Shown here: positions 1,236 through 38,569 of the stretch, one piece after another
Layout: each line of letters begins with the position of its first letter
Numbering within the stretch: position 1 is the stretch's first letter
From: a virus
Lineage: Duplodnaviria > Caudoviricetes
Direction: 5' to 3' (one strand)
DNA: 64,000 bases
IMG/VR virus record: IMGVR_UViG_3300025154_001556
Program-made: the position numbers and the translations under genes
Notes under the pieces: model-generated
Databases searched by the model: none
Seen by the model: the letters and a program-made list of their open reading frames with translations, nothing else
Told to the model about the DNA's origin: nothing

Positions 1236-1306
1236 TGTCCCGTAGAGGAATTGAACCCCTTTAAGCGAGTTTAGAGTTCGCCGCAACGCCTGTCTGCCAA
1301 CGGGAC
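1236..1306 (-). tRNA. tRNA with CUA anticodon (amber suppressor); no encoded CCA
   Basis: GTCCCGT-TG-GCAG ACAGGCG TTGC-G-GCGAA CTCTAAA CTCGC-TTAA-AGGGG TTCAATT CCTCT-ACGGGAC-A: perfect 7-bp acceptor stem, D-loop GG, TTC T-loop, one A-C mismatch in the anticodon stem. Confidence 0.88.
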
Positions 1307-4008: not shown

Positions 4009-4683
4009 TTAAAGTGATTCAATATATGTAGTTAATGACACTGATCTGGGCACGTAAACACTTGTTGTATCGATATAAACAGAAGAGTCAAGTTGTCTAT
4101 AAGGAACAAGTACTACATTTACACCTTTACTTAACAGCGACAAATATCTAGCTCTAGAGTGCACGTGTTCTGGATCATTGAGATCCAGAAAAGCCATAAA
4201 AGTAAAGTAGTTTCCGACCACACCTGTTCTGTATTCCATAAGTTTATTATATTGTACATGCCTACCTAATATATCTCTAGCCATATTTGCACTATTTTTA
4301 GCGAGGCTTTGTGTTGCTGCTCTAATTTCTAAACCATGGATAGGAGCTATGTCTAAAAGATCATTATAGTAATCTTCTTTATTCATATAAGTGGCATCAA
4401 CAGTGATTGTATCTTGACTTACAAATCCACCGTAGTTAAACACGTGCTTAAAGGTTAAGTCTGCCTTAGAGGAGGTGCCCTCAGTATGCACACGGCGCTT
4501 ACCCTTAGCTAAGTACATATATCTACAAGCTTGATAAACTTTATATAATTTTGTATCACTTCGTTGCGCATTTTGCCCTGAATAATTTTCAAAAAATTCA
4601 AACATACCTTCTAACCCGCGCTCAAAATTGGCCACAAGGTCCTGTGTAGAAACTTCTTTTGCTATCGCTAATTCTCCAGTCAT
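4009..4683 (-). CDS. hypothetical protein; possible PD-(D/E)XK restriction endonuclease partner of the MTase
   Basis: Directly upstream of the MTase. KADL...LEIRAATQSLAKNSANMARDILG resembles REase D...ExK..S..N..N...E..G patterns. Confidence 0.35.
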   Translation of the reverse strand: MTGELAIAKEVSTQDLVANFERGLEGMFEFFENYSGQNAQRSDTKLYKVYQACRYMYLAKGKRRVHTEGTSSKADLTFKHVFNYGGFVSQDTITVDATYMNKEDYYNDLLDIAPIHGLEIRAATQSLAKNSANMARDILGRHVQYNKLMEYRTGVVGNYFTFMAFLDLNDPEHVHSRARYLSLLSKGVNVVLVPYRQLDSSVYIDTTSVYVPRSVSLTTYIESL

Positions 4684-4734
4684 GTTAAAAAACCTCCTGT
4701 CTAAAATTAATAATTCATTGCCTTAATTATGGGT

Positions 4735-4763
4735 AGTACAGCACATGTACAATACAATGTCAA
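4735..4763 (-). promoter_or_regulatory. sigma70-type promoter for the REase-like/MTase/leader run
   Basis: TTGACA-N17-TGTACT. Confidence 0.55.
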
Positions 4764-4772
4764 CAACTTTTA

Positions 4773-6563
4773 TTACACCCTTGTATTAATACTCCAACCT
4801 TTGTAGTGTTCTGCAGTCATCGTAGCACCCAGATCTGGATTTCTTATGTAATTACGCCATGTGGCATCTACCACACCATCTTTTGTGACATACCAGAAAT
4901 CTTCTACATAGTTGTAATTATCTTTAAGTGGTACTCTTTCATCTATTGCTAAGTCAGTGGCGTAGTATGAACCCTCTATCGGCACCCATTCACCATCGTC
5001 CCGTTTGAATGCTCCCCAACCATGTCCCGCTATGGAGCTACTTGACATAGCCCCTGTGCCGGCTTTAACTAAACCACCATACATTCTTAAACGTGAGGGG
5101 TCTACACCGGAATGTAATGCCAAACTTGTTATAAGGAAAGCCATATCCTCACAATTATGGCATATATGACCAAACTTACTTACGAACGTATGAGTATCAG
5201 CCACCATAAAGTCACGAGTATTGGTGCTGCCCATAGGTTTAACACTGTGTATGGACACTTCGCTTATACCGTCGTACCCGTAGTCCTTTGCAAAATAGCT
5301 ATTAGAGTTATAACTAAGTCGCCATATGGGTTTGTTGCCCACCCCTTTATGGTCTTTTTGTAACCACATATGAATAGGTATGCCCAACTGCATGTGCAGT
5401 CTCTGTAGGTCGTAAGCTAACTTGTACGAGCTAGTTGAATAGGTCTTTTCTTTGTTAGAGTTTTCAGCATATTTTGAGTAATGACCATCCCCAAGAAAGT
5501 GTCCATTTATTATAGCATATAGTTTATTCGCTGGCAAGTAAAATAGTTCTTCCGGTATATTAATATCAAAACTATTGACTTTACAAAGCCTTAAATACTG
5601 CTTCAACTTTGAGCTCAAAAAATTAAGGTAGGGCACACCACTGTTATTAGTAGTAATACTATATGGTATGTTATATTTATCCAAAATAGGTACTATACTT
5701 GTGGGTACATCATAACCACTTGTTCTAACGTGACTACGGTCTGTATCACCTTCAGCTAAAAAATGCCCTATAACAAAACATAAATCTTCGGTAAGCCAGT
5801 CAATGTCTTTAATTACATATGGTAGTTTTTTAACACAAGGTATTTTACGTTTCCACCACCTGCTAAGGTCTATATCACATAGCTTAGTTTTCTCATAGTC
5901 AGAATACTTTTGTACACGCCTAGTCCAGAAAGGGTGGTCCTCTGTCACGTCTATCCAGGTACCATTAGTAAATTTCACCCTAAAAATAGGTAGATTTCCC
6001 TTCTCCCATATTTTAAGCACAGGTTTATAACAATAACTTTTTTTGTTAAAGTCATAAGATAGAACTATGTCCCCTACTTGTAAAGCGCCTACTTCTTTGA
6101 GGCCATCCTTTGTCCAAATTTCCTCATAGTTAGCAGTACAATCCCCGTCCTTATGTAAAAGCGTCTCTGTTGGGTAAGCCCAGTACTCATCGGGGCCGTA
6201 GTTCATGTCATCAGTTTGATAAGTAATATTGCTATTTACCCATTGTTCAACAGCATACATTTTTTCAGTATCTGTTGTAGTGCCTTTGGTTATTTCTGCA
6301 GCGAGTTTAAATAATCTGGTATTGGGATATTCAAAGTATTTATTGTAGTCCAAATCTTGGCCGGCGGCTTTACCACTAACCGCACCATTAAAACGCAAAA
6401 GTGCCACATCAAGAGCTGATTTTGTGTTCATCAGGTCTTGTATAAAGGCACTTGCTGAGTTGGGTTCTGTTTTAAAACTATCCCAAATGGTGGCGGATTT
6501 CCAATTATTGATTTGAGGTAGTAACTCAGATATAAAATTAGATACGCTACTGATTGAAGACAT
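4773..6563 (-). CDS. transglutaminase-like cysteine protease domain protein containing an intein
   Basis: The spliced product reads YWAYPTETLLHKDGD/CEDMAFL...GHGW (transglutaminase GDCED motif plus catalytic His). Confidence 0.85.
   Translation of the reverse strand: MSSISSVSNFISELLPQINNWKSATIWDSFKTEPNSASAFIQDLMNTKSALDVALLRFNGAVSGKAAGQDLDYNKYFEYPNTRLFKLAAEITKGTTTDTEKMYAVEQWVNSNITYQTDDMNYGPDEYWAYPTETLLHKDGDCTANYEEIWTKDGLKEVGALQVGDIVLSYDFNKKSYCYKPVLKIWEKGNLPIFRVKFTNGTWIDVTEDHPFWTRRVQKYSDYEKTKLCDIDLSRWWKRKIPCVKKLPYVIKDIDWLTEDLCFVIGHFLAEGDTDRSHVRTSGYDVPTSIVPILDKYNIPYSITTNNSGVPYLNFLSSKLKQYLRLCKVNSFDINIPEELFYLPANKLYAIINGHFLGDGHYSKYAENSNKEKTYSTSSYKLAYDLQRLHMQLGIPIHMWLQKDHKGVGNKPIWRLSYNSNSYFAKDYGYDGISEVSIHSVKPMGSTNTRDFMVADTHTFVSKFGHICHNCEDMAFLITSLALHSGVDPSRLRMYGGLVKAGTGAMSSSSIAGHGWGAFKRDDGEWVPIEGSYYATDLAIDERVPLKDNYNYVEDFWYVTKDGVVDATWRNYIRNPDLGATMTAEHYKGWSINTRV
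5154..6140 (-). mobile_element. intein (329 aa) with LAGLIDADG homing endonuclease
   Basis: Block A CTANYEEIWTKDG, block B VTEDHPFW, LAGLIDADG helices VIGHFLAEGD and IINGHFLGDGH, block F/G DFMVADTHTFVSKFGHICHN followed by Cys+1. Confidence 0.92.
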
Positions 6564-6564
6564 A

Positions 6565-6732
6565 TTAAATCCTTATATCTAAGATAGTTCCTTTGTTTGT
6601 AGCAGTTGGACAGGCTTCTTTGGGGCCTTTCGAAAAAACTTTCGTAAGCTTCTTTTTATTTTTCTTTTCAATCTCTTTAAGTTCATCTACCGTCATTAAG
6701 GATGTTTTTTGCATTATTGGGGTTGTAAGCAT
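6565..6732 (-). CDS. small basic hypothetical protein (55 aa), absent from the ORF track
   Basis: Hand-translated MLTTPIMQKTSLMTVDELKEIEKKNKKKLTKVFSKGPKEACPTATNKGTILDIRI, with GGAGG upstream. Confidence 0.55.
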   Translation of the reverse strand: MLTTPIMQKTSLMTVDELKEIEKKNKKKLTKVFSKGPKEACPTATNKGTILDIRI

Positions 6733-6876
6733 TGTGCATCCTCCCTTTTGTAAGACAGGTGCGCATAGCTATTTGAAAGGCGGACCAGTCTTTTAACATA
6801 AAAATAGTGTGCTTACAATACGAAATTTCTTTATCTATAATCATTTATCTACCTTGTAGTTAAGTAAAGTCTATAC

Positions 6877-7536
6877 CTATTTAATTTTTCGTCCTCTAAC
6901 CCAACCCAAATTTTCCAACGTATTAAGTTCTTCTTTGTTTATGGACCTACTTTCATGAGTGTAAGGGCAGTAAATCCACACGGTACCATAGCGAGAATTA
7001 AGTTGTCCTGCTTGCTTTATTGAGTTTTTTCTACCAATTATATTCTTAGTTTCTTGTGTATGCTTTTTACCGTAAAAAGCGTTTTTAGTCCCTTTATGCT
7101 TACCGGTATGGGATTTACTAATTTTATCTTTATACTTTTCCCATCTGCCAGAAGCTATTAAAAGTGTCTTTAATTTATTACCACACACTAAATTTTCTTG
7201 CCCATAACCTTTTTGGCCATTTTTCCCATATAAATTTAATTTGAATTCATTTATGGTAGCTATATTTTTATAGCCGCCCTCAATTAAATTATATGTAAAT
7301 GGGTGTTTAACAAAGTCTTTGTTTACTAAGATTTCTTCAAGCTCCGACATGTCCTCGTGATTATCAAATACGGCCAGGATGTCTTTTTTAAAATTTTGTA
7401 TACCGTATTTTCGTTGAGCGGCTATAAGATGCCGCCCTGAACCCATATATGTGTCATCAACATGCGCAGTTCTATGGCAACCTATATAAATTTTATTATT
7501 AATGATGTTTGTTATTTTATATACAACATAAAACAT
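6877..7536 (-). CDS. free-standing GIY-YIG homing endonuclease with NUMOD3-like repeats
   Basis: VYKITNIINNKIYIGCH...YMGSG and HTQETKNII. Real start is probably MFYVVY at 7536, since the track start overlaps a tRNA. Confidence 0.88.
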   Translation of the reverse strand: MFYVVYKITNIINNKIYIGCHRTAHVDDTYMGSGRHLIAAQRKYGIQNFKKDILAVFDNHEDMSELEEILVNKDFVKHPFTYNLIEGGYKNIATINEFKLNLYGKNGQKGYGQENLVCGNKLKTLLIASGRWEKYKDKISKSHTGKHKGTKNAFYGKKHTQETKNIIGRKNSIKQAGQLNSRYGTVWIYCPYTHESRSINKEELNTLENLGWVRGRKIK

Positions 7537-7595
7537 ATAATAATTCCTGACACTTAAATAAAAAATTATTGTATTTGTATAAACATAATAATAAG

Positions 7596-7681
7596 TGGAG
7601 CCTAGAGAGGGATTCGAACCCCCGATGTGTTTTACCACGACAGCTTACAAAACTGCTGCTATACCCCTTAGCGATCTAGGC
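7596..7681 (-). tRNA. tRNA-Thr(UGU) with an atypical long variable arm; CCA encoded
   Basis: GCCTAGA/TCTAGGC acceptor, U73, CCA; anticodon arm GCAGT TTTGTAA GCTGT; 16-nt extra arm CGTGGTAAAACACATC; T-arm GGGGG TTCGAAT CCCTC. Confidence 0.8.
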
Positions 7682-7682
7682 C

Positions 7683-7703
7683 TATATATATATATATATA
7701 TAT
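7683..7703. repeat. (TA)n dinucleotide tract, about 10 units
   Basis: tatatatatatatatatatat between two tRNAs. Confidence 0.9.
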
Positions 7704-7719
7704 TAAAGTTAGTTAAAAT

Positions 7720-7794
7720 TGGTAGCGGCAGTAGGACTCGAACCTACATAACCAGGGATATGAACCCTGTGAGAAGCCTTTTCTCGATGCCGCG
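7720..7794 (-). tRNA. initiator-type tRNA-Met(CAU); CCA encoded
   Basis: Anticodon arm CAGGG TTCATAT CCCTG with three consecutive G-C pairs, and an unpaired C1 in the acceptor stem. Confidence 0.88.
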
Positions 7795-7804
7795 ACACAT
7801 TTTA

Positions 7805-8107
7805 TTATTTATTTCTTGTAAAAAATAAATGATTAAAAAACTCAAAGTTTATTTTTTGAAGATACTCTGAGGGTGATTCAATATCAAGACCAAGTTGTTT
7901 TACTATTTCACTGGTTACTTCCTCGTCTTGTAAATATTGTTGGTTAAAATTATAAAACTCATACAAATCTTCGTCAGATAAACCGTTCATGTGTTCCTTC
8001 CATGCTGCTTGACAAGTAGGGCAAACATAAGAAGAGTCTTCATTATTATTAATACAATTAGGATCTGAACATTCAGGGTGAAAATCTAAAAAGTCGGGTG
8101 CGAACAT
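7805..8107 (-). CDS. hypothetical protein (CxxxxC/CxxC)
   Basis: ORF track; same strand and tight packing. Confidence 0.6.
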   Translation of the reverse strand: MFAPDFLDFHPECSDPNCINNNEDSSYVCPTCQAAWKEHMNGLSDEDLYEFYNFNQQYLQDEEVTSEIVKQLGLDIESPSEYLQKINFEFFNHLFFTRNK

Positions 8108-8110
8108 GTA

Positions 8111-11208: not shown

Positions 11209-11302
<94 letters not shown>

Positions 11303-11318
11303 ATAGTCAATAAAATTG

Positions 11319-11401
11319 CGGAAAAGGTAGGATTCGAACCTACGGAACTTTCGCTCAACGGTTTTCAAGACCGCCGCCTTCAGCCACTCGGCCACTTTTC
11401 C
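11319..11401 (-). tRNA. tRNA-Ser(UGA); no CCA
   Basis: GGAAAAG...GCGGT CTTGAAA ACCGT, long variable arm, G73. Confidence 0.92.
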
Positions 11402-11406
11402 TATTT

Positions 11407-11460
11407 AATAAATAATAAGATGACCACAGTCTAACCACCACGGTCATCTTATTATTTATT
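11407..11460 (-). terminator. 19-bp perfect inverted repeat; probable terminator or processing hairpin
   Basis: aataaataataagatgacc-N16-ggtcatcttattatttatt after the cytochrome gene. Confidence 0.65.
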
Positions 11461-11476
11461 TTAATCTATGCTAATA

Positions 11477-12331
11477 CTATTTTAATGTATGACACTTAGT
11501 ACAAGCAATATTACGTTTTGCATGGGTATCATGAAGCCCACTATTCCAAGTTTTCCTACTGTGACAGGTGCTACATAAGTTTTGCCACGGAGTCATAATA
11601 AAACCAGTAGGGTCAACGGTACCTGTACCAGGAGTAGGGGTAGGGGTAGGGGTAGGGGTGGTGCCTGTGTCCCCGTCAACCCCATCTTTTACCTCACCTG
11701 AGCCCACTGTAACATGGCAGTCCAAGCAGCCCTGATGTATAAGGTATGTTTCTTTCCTAAAACCAGGTGTGGCATGTGGATAGTGGCACATTTTACATGT
11801 TATAATATCCCCTTTTAGCAGTACAGCGATCCCGCCCCCAGATACAATTTCATCACCACTCATAGGGTCTTTAACAAAACCCCCATTTCCGTCGGCTACC
11901 TTTCTACCGTTAAATACGAAATCGTATTGAGCGCAGATAAACTTGTCGAATGCAACCACTGAGTCCTTCCCATTATGACAGTCTCTGCATACACCAACAC
12001 CTTCACGCTTTACTCTCTCGCCATGATTTACTCCATGTGCGTTGCCGGGTGACGGTAAAAACTTAGTAACAGTGTCCGGACATTCTGGACAAACCGGGTC
12101 TGGACATTCTGGACAAACTTGATCTTTACATTCCTCGCACGAAGGACACTCTCTATCTTTACATTCCTCGCACGAAGGACACTCTTTATCTTTAACTTTC
12201 TTTTCTTGTTTGTAAGACTCTCTATCGCGTTTATGCTCATCATCCTTAGCAATAGATGTACCCGCTACCATAAAACTAAAACAGAGTAAGATTGTTATAA
12301 TACTTAACAATTTATTCATACATTCCTCCAT
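11477..12331 (-). CDS. secreted multiheme cytochrome c (5 CXXCH motifs)
   Basis: N-terminal signal peptide; CRDCH, CKMCH, CLDCH, CSTCH, CTKCH; CPxC repeats; (TP)n linker. Confidence 0.85.
   Translation of the reverse strand: MEECMNKLLSIITILLCFSFMVAGTSIAKDDEHKRDRESYKQEKKVKDKECPSCEECKDRECPSCEECKDQVCPECPDPVCPECPDTVTKFLPSPGNAHGVNHGERVKREGVGVCRDCHNGKDSVVAFDKFICAQYDFVFNGRKVADGNGGFVKDPMSGDEIVSGGGIAVLLKGDIITCKMCHYPHATPGFRKETYLIHQGCLDCHVTVGSGEVKDGVDGDTGTTPTPTPTPTPGTGTVDPTGFIMTPWQNLCSTCHSRKTWNSGLHDTHAKRNIACTKCHTLK
12078..12193 (-). repeat. coding tandem repeats (33-nt x2 and 24-nt x2) encoding ECPSCEECKD and VCPECPD
   Basis: atctttacattcctcgcacgaaggacactc is duplicated; ggacattctggacaaac is duplicated. 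Confidence 0.85.
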
Positions 12332-12430
12332 CGTTTTGTAGTGATTTAATCACTGTTTGTGTTAGGCCTACACACAACAATGGTTAGCTTGCTATGCGTA
12401 GGTATAAAATACTTAACTGTAATTAAGTAA

Positions 12431-12459
12431 AGTATAAGACATTAAATAAAGATTGTCAA
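12431..12459 (-). promoter_or_regulatory. sigma70-type promoter for the cytochrome gene
   Basis: TTGACA-N17-TATACT overlapping the TGA of the upstream gene. Confidence 0.75.
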
Positions 12460-13421
12460 TTACTTTTAAACTTTTTAAGTAAAAATTGTCCGCATGCAGC
12501 CTTTACTTCCGATCCGGTGGATACTTGATATTTTAATTTACTGATATTATCTGAAAGTGTTTTTACTATTGTATTAAAATTTGTTGTTTCTTTAAAAGCA
12601 GATCCATCACAAGTATTAAAACGTAAGATGCGTAATTCTTTGTTGTAATTACTTGGACTATCCATAAAAGAAATAAGTTCCTTAATCTCTTCCAAGGAGT
12701 CATTGCATGACTGTAAAAAAACTTGATGGTATAATACATCAATGCCTTCTAACGCAGAAAGAATATTTAAAGCAGATACAGCTTCTATTATAGGTAGAGT
12801 ACCTGGAATTAAACCACTGCGTGTTTTTTGAAAAGCAGAATGTAATGAGTAAAATAGTCTAAAAGGACTTCTACCATCAATATGTTCTGGATTAATATCA
12901 TATAATTCTAAGGCTGTATTTAATTCTATAAATTTATTAAAATAAATATTTTTTACATTAGGGTATACAGTGGATAAATCCACCCCATCCAAGCCTTTTG
13001 CATAACCGTTAGCAAAAACCCAATTAAGTACATTTATAGAAACTTGATATACAATATCCCCGTATGGTAATGCATCACCCATACCCATCCATGAAAATTT
13101 TATGTATTTGTCTTTAAGCTCAGGTTTGTGTGCTACTTCTGCTGCTATTGCATCTTTAACATTCTGCTCTATTTGTTTAGCGGATAATTTTGTATAACCA
13201 CACTTTTTCACTGTCAGATAACAAAAAGCACAACGCATTGCACACCCTGCTGATACAGAAACAAACACGGAGTATTTATTTCTAGCTGTTGTAGTTACAC
13301 CTACTGTGTTATTACAAGAACTTACAGTTTTTATGGCAGTCTCTGAACCATCGTTGTGTATATATTTAGCCACCTGGTTATCTTTTGTTCTATAAACTTC
13401 CATAATTAACCCCGCTTTCAA
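12456..13421 (-). CDS. RlmN/Cfr-like radical SAM protein
   Basis: CAMRCAFC, MGMGD (cf. MGMGEP), SLHS and C-terminal AACGQ. Confidence 0.82.
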   Translation of the reverse strand: MKAGLIMEVYRTKDNQVAKYIHNDGSETAIKTVSSCNNTVGVTTTARNKYSVFVSVSAGCAMRCAFCYLTVKKCGYTKLSAKQIEQNVKDAIAAEVAHKPELKDKYIKFSWMGMGDALPYGDIVYQVSINVLNWVFANGYAKGLDGVDLSTVYPNVKNIYFNKFIELNTALELYDINPEHIDGRSPFRLFYSLHSAFQKTRSGLIPGTLPIIEAVSALNILSALEGIDVLYHQVFLQSCNDSLEEIKELISFMDSPSNYNKELRILRFNTCDGSAFKETTNFNTIVKTLSDNISKLKYQVSTGSEVKAACGQFLLKKFKSN

Positions 13422-13423
13422 AA

Positions 13424-14194
13424 TTATACTACTTCTAATGTAGCTGGTGCTGCCCCTTCAAAAATAACTTCTTCTTTATTAGAAAGTTTTGATAATGGGG
13501 GAATAAGATATTCAGCTACAATGTGGCGATTTACAAATATATCATTTAACCTTGTAGCCTTTTTAATCAGCTGTCTTTTAACATAAGTACCACGTTTAAA
13601 GTGTGTAGGGTAATCGTTCCAATTTACACCTTTTCTCATAAGCATGTCTAACATCTCTTCCCTATTTTTAGAGTGCAGTTCTTTGTGTGCATAATGGAAT
13701 CTTGCTGCCATAGAGACACTGTTTTTAATTGCATCTAATTCACGCCATACAAGTGTGTTGACTGCCTCCATTTTAGTAGGAACCACCCAAGCACGACAAT
13801 CAAATAGACCAGCATCTTCACCTTTTTCAGGAATAACTTCTTTAAGATAAGAAGAAAACATAACTGATGCCGCTGAAGCCAATACAGAAACAATCTTCTG
13901 TATTTTTCCATCAAAATAAACTTGTTTATTATAACTATCGCTATATAAAATAAGGCTTATTTCATCACTTTGGGTGTAACCTATTATTGCGTTTGACATT
14001 GAAACTAACGCCCCAGTGACATTTATCATTAAATGACTTAAACGTTCATCATAAGGCCTTTTAAGGCCTTTTGTAAGTGTACTAAAACATTTACCATCCA
14101 ATCTTACACATATAGGTAGTAAAGGAGTAAATTGTCTGCCTGACTCATAACGCTCTAACAATTTCATCCTGTCACCCAGCGCATCTTTATTCAT
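13424..14194 (-). CDS. tRNA(His) guanylyltransferase Thg1-like protein
   Basis: RLDGKCFS, GYTQSDEISL, FDCR and FKRGT motifs. Confidence 0.9.
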   Translation of the reverse strand: MNKDALGDRMKLLERYESGRQFTPLLPICVRLDGKCFSTLTKGLKRPYDERLSHLMINVTGALVSMSNAIIGYTQSDEISLILYSDSYNKQVYFDGKIQKIVSVLASAASVMFSSYLKEVIPEKGEDAGLFDCRAWVVPTKMEAVNTLVWRELDAIKNSVSMAARFHYAHKELHSKNREEMLDMLMRKGVNWNDYPTHFKRGTYVKRQLIKKATRLNDIFVNRHIVAEYLIPPLSKLSNKEEVIFEGAAPATLEVV

Positions 14195-37796: not shown

Positions 37797-38569
37797 TAAA
37801 GCACCTCATAGTATTTTTTGTATTTTTCTATGACCCCTTCATTTATTACACGTTGGGTCCAACCTCTATGTGGGGCCTCAGCCAAAGCGTCCATAGTAAC
37901 ACCTATATCAATTAAACTTTTGTTTCTTATATTATGATCTTTCCATAAGCGTTTGGCTAATACACGTGTAGCCATACCTATTACAGGAAGAATTATATCA
38001 CAAGTTTGTAGTTTGTCAAGTATTTCTTCCATTTTACGATCTAAGGCATAATAAGCATTGTCCACCCCTGTAAAAGATACTGTGTGTTTAATATTAAACA
38101 TCTTTTCTATAAGGTTACTATTACACAAAGGTTCGCCGGCTACCAATAATACTTTTTTATCATAGAACATAGTATCAATAAATTTTACAAACCACTCTAA
38201 TTTATGTTCAAAAGCATATTGAAATATTAACGCATGATAACCTTCGTCTGGGTTACCTCGTAGTAACTTCCAAATATGTCTAAGCTGCCCATCCAGAATT
38301 TGCTGCTGTACTCTATTTTTTATCCAAAAATAACTACCGCTCCCATCTTCAAAGGAACCGGCAGTACTAGCTACTACATAATTTAGATCGAATATTTGTA
38401 AAGCTTCCCTTAATTCCTGTCGTAGTTTAACACTATTTCTATGCCTTTGTTCATTAGGTGCTCCTTGTATAAGAGTTAAATCTCCATCACCAAACCTTAC
38501 AAAGTAAAATGGGGAACCCCCATTTATCAATGTGTCTAAATGATTACTTGTTTGTTCTATTGTTTTCAA
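37796..38569 (-). CDS. GT-D fold (DUF1792-like) glycosyltransferase
   Basis: YFVRFGDGD, GMATRVLA and IDIG..MD. Confidence 0.72.
   Translation of the reverse strand: MKTIEQTSNHLDTLINGGSPFYFVRFGDGDLTLIQGAPNEQRHRNSVKLRQELREALQIFDLNYVVASTAGSFEDGSGSYFWIKNRVQQQILDGQLRHIWKLLRGNPDEGYHALIFQYAFEHKLEWFVKFIDTMFYDKKVLLVAGEPLCNSNLIEKMFNIKHTVSFTGVDNAYYALDRKMEEILDKLQTCDIILPVIGMATRVLAKRLWKDHNIRNKSLIDIGVTMDALAEAPHRGWTQRVINEGVIEKYKKYYEVL

Follow-up and report, generated by a model that had tools for sequence, protein, structure and literature searches.

The cytochrome gene and its surroundings

The stretch of DNA analysed here, called the window below, comprises 64,000 nucleotides of a virus assigned to the Caudoviricetes (IMG/VR record IMGVR_UViG_3300025154_001556). 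On its minus strand, positions 11477-12319 hold a coding gene whose 280-residue product, P0001, carries five CXXCH motifs. The features of this unit, in the direction of transcription, are the following:

12431..12459, minus strand: sigma70-type promoter TTGACA-17-TATACT, 11 of 12 consensus bases (promoter scan; kept in orthologues)
12320..12430, minus strand: 5' leader with the Shine-Dalgarno sequence GGAGGA at 12329-12324 (sequence and alignment with the orthologue L006)
12248..12319, minus strand: start codon and Sec-type signal peptide, residues 1-24, likely cut after SIA (translation; cleavage site read from sequence)
12182..12247, minus strand: charged Lys/Asp/Glu/Arg segment, residues 25-46, sublineage-specific (alignments)
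12074..12181, minus strand: Cys-Pro tandem repeat, residues 47-82, with 10 Cys and six CxxC motifs, variable in copy number (Tandem Repeats Finder)
11675..12067, minus strand: three-heme core domain, residues 85-215 (family alignments)
11612..11674, minus strand: Gly/Asp/Thr-Pro linker with (TP)5 (6-nt repeat, 5 copies)
11480..11611, minus strand: two-heme C-terminal domain, residues 237-280, with conserved H263 and H266 (alignment)
11477..11479, minus strand: stop codon TAA (sequence)
11407..11460, minus strand: terminator-like hairpin followed by a U-rich run (fold)

The gene had initially been placed at 11477-12331, as in the open reading frame list (minus strand, 284 aa). Its end at 11477 was retained, while the start was moved to the second ATG, at 12319. 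In the orthologue L006, 85% identical to P0001, the upstream ATG reads AAG, and the alignment shows that both the second ATG and the GGAGGA sequence are kept; furthermore, the first four codons of the 284-aa reading frame overlap this ribosome-binding site. Judged from the alignment, the ATG at 12319 is the true start. A comparison of the leader with Rfam matched no family.

The promoter falls just at the end of the upstream gene and would place the start of transcription near 12424. A similar one (TTGACA-16-TATACT, 11/12) precedes the gene in L006, and in the more distant orthologue L001 it is perfect (TTGACA-17-TATAAT, 12/12) and still present although the upstream neighbour gene differs. 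Near-consensus sigma70-type sites (at least 11/12) are frequent in the window, with 20 on the coding strand, three of them perfect (12/12), and one on the other strand, against 1.7 expected. The phage thus seems to use host-type promoters and to rely heavily on the host RNA polymerase. Examples of minus-strand sigma70-type promoters elsewhere in the window are found at 38019, 24362 and 9621.

At the other end of the gene, the hairpin has a folding energy of -28 kcal/mol (z -5.93), and none of 200 shuffled sequences folds as well. It was missed by a simple terminator scan because its stem and loop exceed the limits of that scan. Two tRNA-Ser genes, confirmed by Rfam, follow directly (11210-11401). 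tRNA genes are found on both sides of the cytochrome gene, and seven tRNAs were counted in the window. The view of the first-pass annotation, that the gene has its own promoter and terminator and forms a stand-alone unit in a tRNA region, therefore held.

Directly upstream, and likewise between tRNA genes, lie genes for a radical SAM protein (a sub-threshold Pfam match) and a Thg1-like tRNA-His guanylyltransferase (12456-14194, minus strand). These two genes and the tRNAs may constitute one block of tRNA-related genes, with the cytochrome gene inserted into it. A tRNA of the amber-suppressor type (anticodon CTA) occurs in the window (1236-1306, minus strand) and in two of the related phages (L001, 15557-15628; L008, 12421-12497); the cytochrome gene itself contains no in-frame TAG. 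In the 264-kb relative, the gene that immediately precedes the cytochrome is of the caspase family (Peptidase_C14; L001, 7052-7933; L007, 4932-5813); no such gene is found at this position in the window.

The translation confirmed the architecture originally proposed, namely a signal peptide, a charged segment, a Cys repeat, a three-heme domain, a (TP)n linker and a two-heme domain, in that order. The earlier count of 12 extra Cys was also correct: P0001 has 22 Cys, 10 of which are in CXXCH motifs; the tandem repeat accounts for another 10, and the last two are C129, which is conserved, and a Cys of the signal peptide. A hydrophobic N-terminus is present in every complete family member, and the N-terminal sequence of P0001 suggests export by the Sec pathway. 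Anchoring as a lipoprotein was considered and rejected: Cys13 is conserved in the jumbo-phage clade, but the residues preceding it do not fit a lipobox when read from the sequence.

The region between signal peptide and core is the least constant part of the protein. The charged segment is missing from P0002, P0003 and other family members, as seen in the alignments. The Cys-Pro segment is encoded by tandem DNA repeats of 33 nt (2.2 copies) and 24 nt (2.3 copies), as identified by Tandem Repeats Finder, which also detected the 6-nt repeat (5 copies) underlying the TP run of the linker. Cys-Pro-rich spacers that differ in sequence are found at the same place in most family members, and the N-terminal spacer of this cytochrome family is very plastic; the Cys-Pro repeat could provide disulfide hinges or metal sites. 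In P0014 and P0015 (L033), the signal peptide is followed by an extended stretch of VEVPGPEV-like repeats and then by the three-heme core.

The five CXXCH motifs of P0001 start at residues 111, 175, 198, 249 and 273. In 200,000 residue shuffles of the protein the count of such motifs never exceeded three, and a chance origin of the five is excluded. P0001 is the sole reading frame in the window with more than one CXXCH, and the same holds for its counterpart in the 234-kb relative. Of the 12 His of P0001, 11 are conserved in position: each CXXCH motif contributes its proximal His, and the six others (95, 99, 182, 195, 263 and 266) are enough to offer each of the five hemes a second His ligand. 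Covalent attachment of five hemes is thus predicted, all of them probably bis-His coordinated. Such a His pattern would suit a low-spin electron-transfer cytochrome rather than an enzyme with an open heme site.

Phage origin and the cytochrome family

The cytochrome is a genuine phage gene, as the first-pass annotation had claimed. The window also encodes a UvsX-like recombinase, a DnaB-like helicase, a primase, a clamp and an exonuclease, and almost every open reading frame of 100 aa or more is found on a single strand. Exactly the same protein occurs on 27 contigs, which reach a length of up to 236,830 bases. Phage contigs from IMG/VR and ENA, 234, 264 and 228 kb long, encode relatives 85%, 64% and 34% identical to it, respectively, and in all three the gene is located just upstream of a tRNA array. 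This synteny beside the tRNA array is shared by four related jumbo-phage loci, at 34-85% identity.

One explanation weighed against these data was that host DNA had been mis-assembled into a phage contig, a scenario in line with the GC content of the gene, 43% as compared to 35% for the window. The excess is accounted for by the Cys, Gly and Pro codons, and GC3 (0.35) is inside the range of the window, at its upper end. Furthermore, independently assembled related phages have the gene at this position too, the promoter type is shared with neighbouring genes and tRNA genes are present on both flanks. In view of these data and of the 27 contigs, we consider the chance of a chimera at this locus to be negligible.

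Comparison with the 85% orthologue L006 over 261 codons yielded a dN of 0.030, a dS of 0.40 and a dN/dS ratio of 0.075. Against the 64% orthologue, synonymous sites are saturated, pointing to a long residence of the gene in phages. The heme domains hardly change across nine natural variants from the 90% cluster. What distinguishes these variants is mainly the in-frame gain or loss of entire repeat units, namely a Cys unit of 13 residues and three TP units; the TP linker is shorter in P0027 and P0024.

The homologue search and phylogeny that had been suggested as a check were carried out, and delineated a family of about 18 clusters, known to date from phages alone. An exhaustive HMMER search of 1.84 billion cluster representatives returned 22 hits at E ≤0.001, about 18 of which share the three-heme core; they are mostly exported proteins of 170-300 aa. 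Two further hits, P0004 (5,830 aa, no Cys; E 3e-36) and P0023 (1,674 aa, 3 Cys; E 3e-4), were rejected as repeat-driven matches devoid of CXXCH, and call for caution in automated counts of the family. Another, P0019, is a cellular cytochrome with 13 CXXCH motifs that matches the two-heme tail only. Every readable context of the family is a phage.

In an alignment of 18 core sequences the order of elements is an H-x3-H motif, heme 1, a beta-rich insert and the paired CXXCH motifs of hemes 2 and 3. H95, H99, the three CXXCH motifs (C111/C114/H115, C175/C178/H179 and C198/C201/H202), G138 and D151 are invariant, and H195 and G197 are nearly so. Relatives with five or seven hemes retain all five CXXCH motifs, and every sequence with the core domain retains the three core motifs. 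In the core tree, the five- and seven-heme forms group together with the three-heme protein of the jumbo phage L008 in one clade (support 92/92). It seems from this grouping that the two-heme tail was added within this clade, was doubled in P0006, and was lost or never gained in L008.

A search of 50,697 GenBank phage records returned no match; PHROG offered nothing convincing for P0001 (a 19-residue match, E 0.007) and nothing for P0007 and P0002; no family was matched in PADLOC, and no true member of the three-heme core family was found in Pfam.

Relation to known multiheme cytochromes

The conserved CXXCH motifs, the distal His and the sequence-derived export signal are those of a c-type multiheme cytochrome (class III-like). 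P0001 itself scored 18 bits against Pfam Cytochrome_C7 (PF14522; cut-off 24.8), and its two-heme tail matched the decaheme models DmsE and GSU2203 weakly (17-20 bits). Against the MtrA/DmsE model TIGR03508 it scored 17.5 bits (cut-off 192), and with five hemes rather than ten it falls outside that family. Several homologues surpassed the cut-off (20.6) of Paired_CXXCH_1 (PF09699), namely P0006 (42.5 bits), P0007 (31.0), L009 (27.1) and L008 (23.1), with matches covering hemes 2-3. The same two hemes were the only ones aligned when the family profile was compared to 6r2q_A (E 1.7e-5), the structure that we take to be the MtrCAB complex of Shewanella, with MtrA as its chain A. This chain is labelled 'Cystathionine beta-synthase' in the PDB table, probably by a naming slip in the source; the aligned sequence carries repeated CxxCH. 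Neighbours retrieved with a protein language model were all clusters of c3, c7, paired-CXXCH or NrfB-type cytochromes.

P0001 resembles MtrA and DmsE in being a predicted exported protein of the bis-His type with paired CXXCH modules (C-x2-CH-x-PH ... H-x2-C-x2-CH). It differs from them in that the N-terminal half of its core (H-x3-H, heme 1 and the beta-rich insert) has no counterpart there, and in that no gene for a porin or outer-membrane partner accompanies it. With the PpcA-type triheme Cytochrome_C7 proteins of Geobacter and with Paired_CXXCH_1 proteins it shares the predicted plan of a small periplasmic multiheme carrier with His-His ligation. c7 proteins, however, use about 70 residues for three hemes, whereas the core of P0001 has 44 residues per heme, with hemes 1 and 2 separated by an insert of some 60 residues. 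NrfB, the pentaheme electron carrier of nitrite reductase, is similarly soluble and periplasmic and has the same number of hemes. NrfB clusters were among the language-model neighbours with a score of 0.84, to be taken as a lead only; NrfB structures gave no sequence match at E <1, and neither nrfA nor another reductase gene was found nearby. Taken together, these comparisons identify the tail and the segment with hemes 2-3 as paired-CXXCH modules of the ordinary kind; for the N-terminal half of the core, with its H-x3-H motif, heme 1 and insert of about 60 residues, no counterpart has been described.

These comparisons also bear on the possibility that P0001 is not a heme protein, and that it is instead a secreted Cys/His-rich protein, metal-binding or disulfide-rich, that uses its CXXCH motifs otherwise. 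The ten extra Cys in CxxC repeats do look metallothionein- or hinge-like, and P0001 stays under the Pfam cut-offs. Nevertheless, close relatives have a differing Cys repeat or none at all, whereas the five CXXCH motifs and six further His are conserved; the family profile matches the heme modules of MtrA, and homologues pass the Paired_CXXCH_1 threshold. We therefore regard a non-heme protein as very improbable.

Structure prediction yielded an AlphaFold2 model with a pLDDT of 60 for the full-length protein, below 50 in the linker, and of 76.8 for the core modelled separately. Searches with these heme-free models returned nothing usable from the PDB or AFDB clusters (Foldseek), no alignment with Z ≥2 among 48,161 chains (VIA-align) and a TM score of at most 0.35 in the ESM Atlas. 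Such an outcome is to be anticipated when a fold packed with hemes is modelled without them, and says nothing about the novelty of the fold.

Cellular genomes were searched by sampling and by pattern-limited scans, and the results are accordingly worded as 'not found'. Three pattern scans of 185,579 species-representative genomes in GTDB uncovered no true member of the family; two weak hits were rejected, both being actinobacterial cytochromes that exceed 1,000 aa and are unrelated to it. When the profile was run against 401 genomes of Thermodesulfobacteriota, the phylum in which such proteins are most abundant, it gave partial matches only (positions 79-129), inside larger proteins, and a profile search of three further genomes gave the same partial matches only. 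The closest cellular module to the two-heme tail remains that of P0019, of which a 97%-identical genomic copy exists in a metagenome-assembled genome (MAG) of Desulfocapsaceae.

Multiheme cytochromes have been described on other large mobile elements. [quoted passage not shown] That gene groups with the homologues of its hosts as a host-like copy, whereas cellular members of the P0001 family were not found in the searches made. Borgs, giant elements of Methanoperedens from groundwater and sediment, also carry multiheme cytochromes (PMC9605863); they are archaeal non-viral elements with host-type cytochrome copies, as opposed to the tailed bacteriophages that harbour the P0001 gene.

The amoC-phage precedent makes it conceivable that P0001 is a classical host-derived auxiliary metabolic gene, that is, a host cytochrome copied recently and serving to enhance one defined pathway, for instance the respiration of nitrite, iron or sulfur, and the resemblance of the two-heme tail to the P0019 module with its near-identical Desulfocapsaceae copy is in agreement with such an origin. 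For a recent copy, however, a cellular homologue would be looked for, and none of full length was found in the 185,579 species genomes or the 401 Thermodesulfobacteriota. In addition, the roughly 18 clusters detected among the 1.84 billion representatives are phage-borne wherever their context is readable, and the saturated synonymous sites speak for long residence in phages. A recent host origin is accordingly held to be distinctly improbable.

Carriers, host and proposed role

The family is carried by phages of very different kinds, whose DNA spans 34-65% GC. The jumbo-phage carriers are represented by L001, L006, L007 and L008, and the related phages are about 230-265 kb in size. A temperate contig of 57% GC (L009) encodes a three-heme member in a region (4406-8110) where the gene follows the tail genes, is flanked by those for a GH108 endolysin and a membrane protein (phrog_1544), and has an integrase as its neighbour. 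In L011 (1-2405) and L014 (87-3136), of 57-65% GC, the cytochrome gene comes directly after that for the portal, whose stop it overlaps by 4 nt in L014. In L011 it is succeeded by a scaffold-like gene (a weak match) and a capsid gene; the genes beyond it in L014 have no assignment. These two head modules have no other detectable gene in common. Acidovorax phage AP1, whose capsid shares 72% identity with that of L011, has no cytochrome gene after its portal, indicating that the cytochrome in L011 is an insertion. Other carriers are contigs with PHROG-only neighbours and an 18-kb contig with SbcCD-like genes. An all-against-all comparison of neighbourhoods identified no conserved neighbour gene across carriers, the cytochrome being the sole gene common to the jumbo, temperate and podophage-like ones.

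The 234-kb and 228-kb relatives (89% and 86% complete according to CheckV) contain no CcmC/CcmF/CcsA, ResB or CcdA/DsbD and no Redoxin-type thiol reductase, nor do they contain a second multiheme gene. Since related phages do not bring maturation genes, heme supply and attachment must come from the host, in agreement with the original remark that host cytochrome c maturation is needed. This constrains the host to organisms capable of both Sec export and cytochrome c maturation, and the strong GGAGG site and the TTGACA/TATAAT promoters would also argue against hosts with very different signals.

As a clue to the host the gene is weak, and it does not single out a metal or sulfate reducer: a family with no cellular members in the searches indicates no donor lineage, and the carriers, with their wide range of GC content, resemble phages of Betaproteobacteria and Alphaproteobacteria, the only lineage hints available for carriers other than the present phage. 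The Desulfocapsaceae MAG, as the closest cellular relative of the two-heme tail, is a lead only. The terminase of the 234-kb relative is about 27% identical to terminases of Bacillus, Clostridium and Microcystis phages, and the RecA-like gene was uninformative on the host.

The gene has its own promoter and hairpin, is absent from AP1 at the spot it occupies in L011, and has no linked partner genes, as would be the case for a moron. Our preferred interpretation, to which we assign a probability of about 60%, is that it is a self-contained phage moron encoding a five-heme periplasmic electron carrier that depends on the maturation system and redox partners of the host. According to this model, the single-gene accessory cassette would be transcribed by the host sigma70 RNA polymerase and its product exported by Sec to the periplasm, where the host cytochrome c maturation system would attach five hemes, probably all bis-His. 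The mature protein would be a short electron wire, made of a three-heme domain, a flexible Thr-Pro linker and a two-heme domain, and would most likely pass electrons between periplasmic or membrane redox proteins of the host, so that respiratory electron flow could be kept or redirected during infection. No redox partner could be identified from the carrier neighbourhoods. We infer both the electron-carrier role and its benefit to the phage; that the cytochrome alters host electron transfer, as initially put forward, may reasonably be supposed.

The positions of the gene in the small phages raise an additional scenario. There, the cytochrome resides in late modules, after the portal or in a lysis cassette, with no obvious fit to early energy support, and a metabolic helper gene would not usually be confined to phages; both observations may point to a phage-specific role instead. 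The main rival to the electron-carrier moron is thus a phage-specific periplasmic function, for instance the draining or short-circuiting of the respiratory chain for lysis timing, phage exclusion or lysogenic conversion. It would be in accord with the restriction of the family to phages in the searches made, with the location between endolysin and membrane protein next to an integrase in L009, and with that directly after the portal in the late head modules of L011 and L014. Accessory phage genes are nonetheless common at such positions without taking part in lysis, no homology to lysis, exclusion or defence families was detected, and in the jumbo phages the gene is preceded by a promoter of host type, as are 19 further genes of the window. 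We consider this alternative rather unlikely.

The electron-carrier moron thus remains the reading that we favour. A broader and bolder proposition, which we advance only tentatively, is that of a phage-only cytochrome family that spreads between unrelated backbones as a one-gene cassette and performs a phage-specific periplasmic job, as opposed to a borrowed host enzyme. If true, it would represent a viral wire that taps or discharges the host respiratory chain, for example by holding the membrane potential until assembly is done or by setting the timing of lysis. The protein is small and soluble, and could be examined by standard co-expression with ccm genes. The gene can also serve as a marker for phages whose hosts mature c-type cytochromes.

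Multiheme cytochromes drive the cycling of iron, sulfur, nitrogen and methane in groundwater and sediments, and to our knowledge almost nothing is known of viral influence on the electron chains involved. The combination of purifying selection, varied carriers and the lack of a cellular counterpart in the searches made suggests that phages own a tool for acting on the respiration of their hosts.
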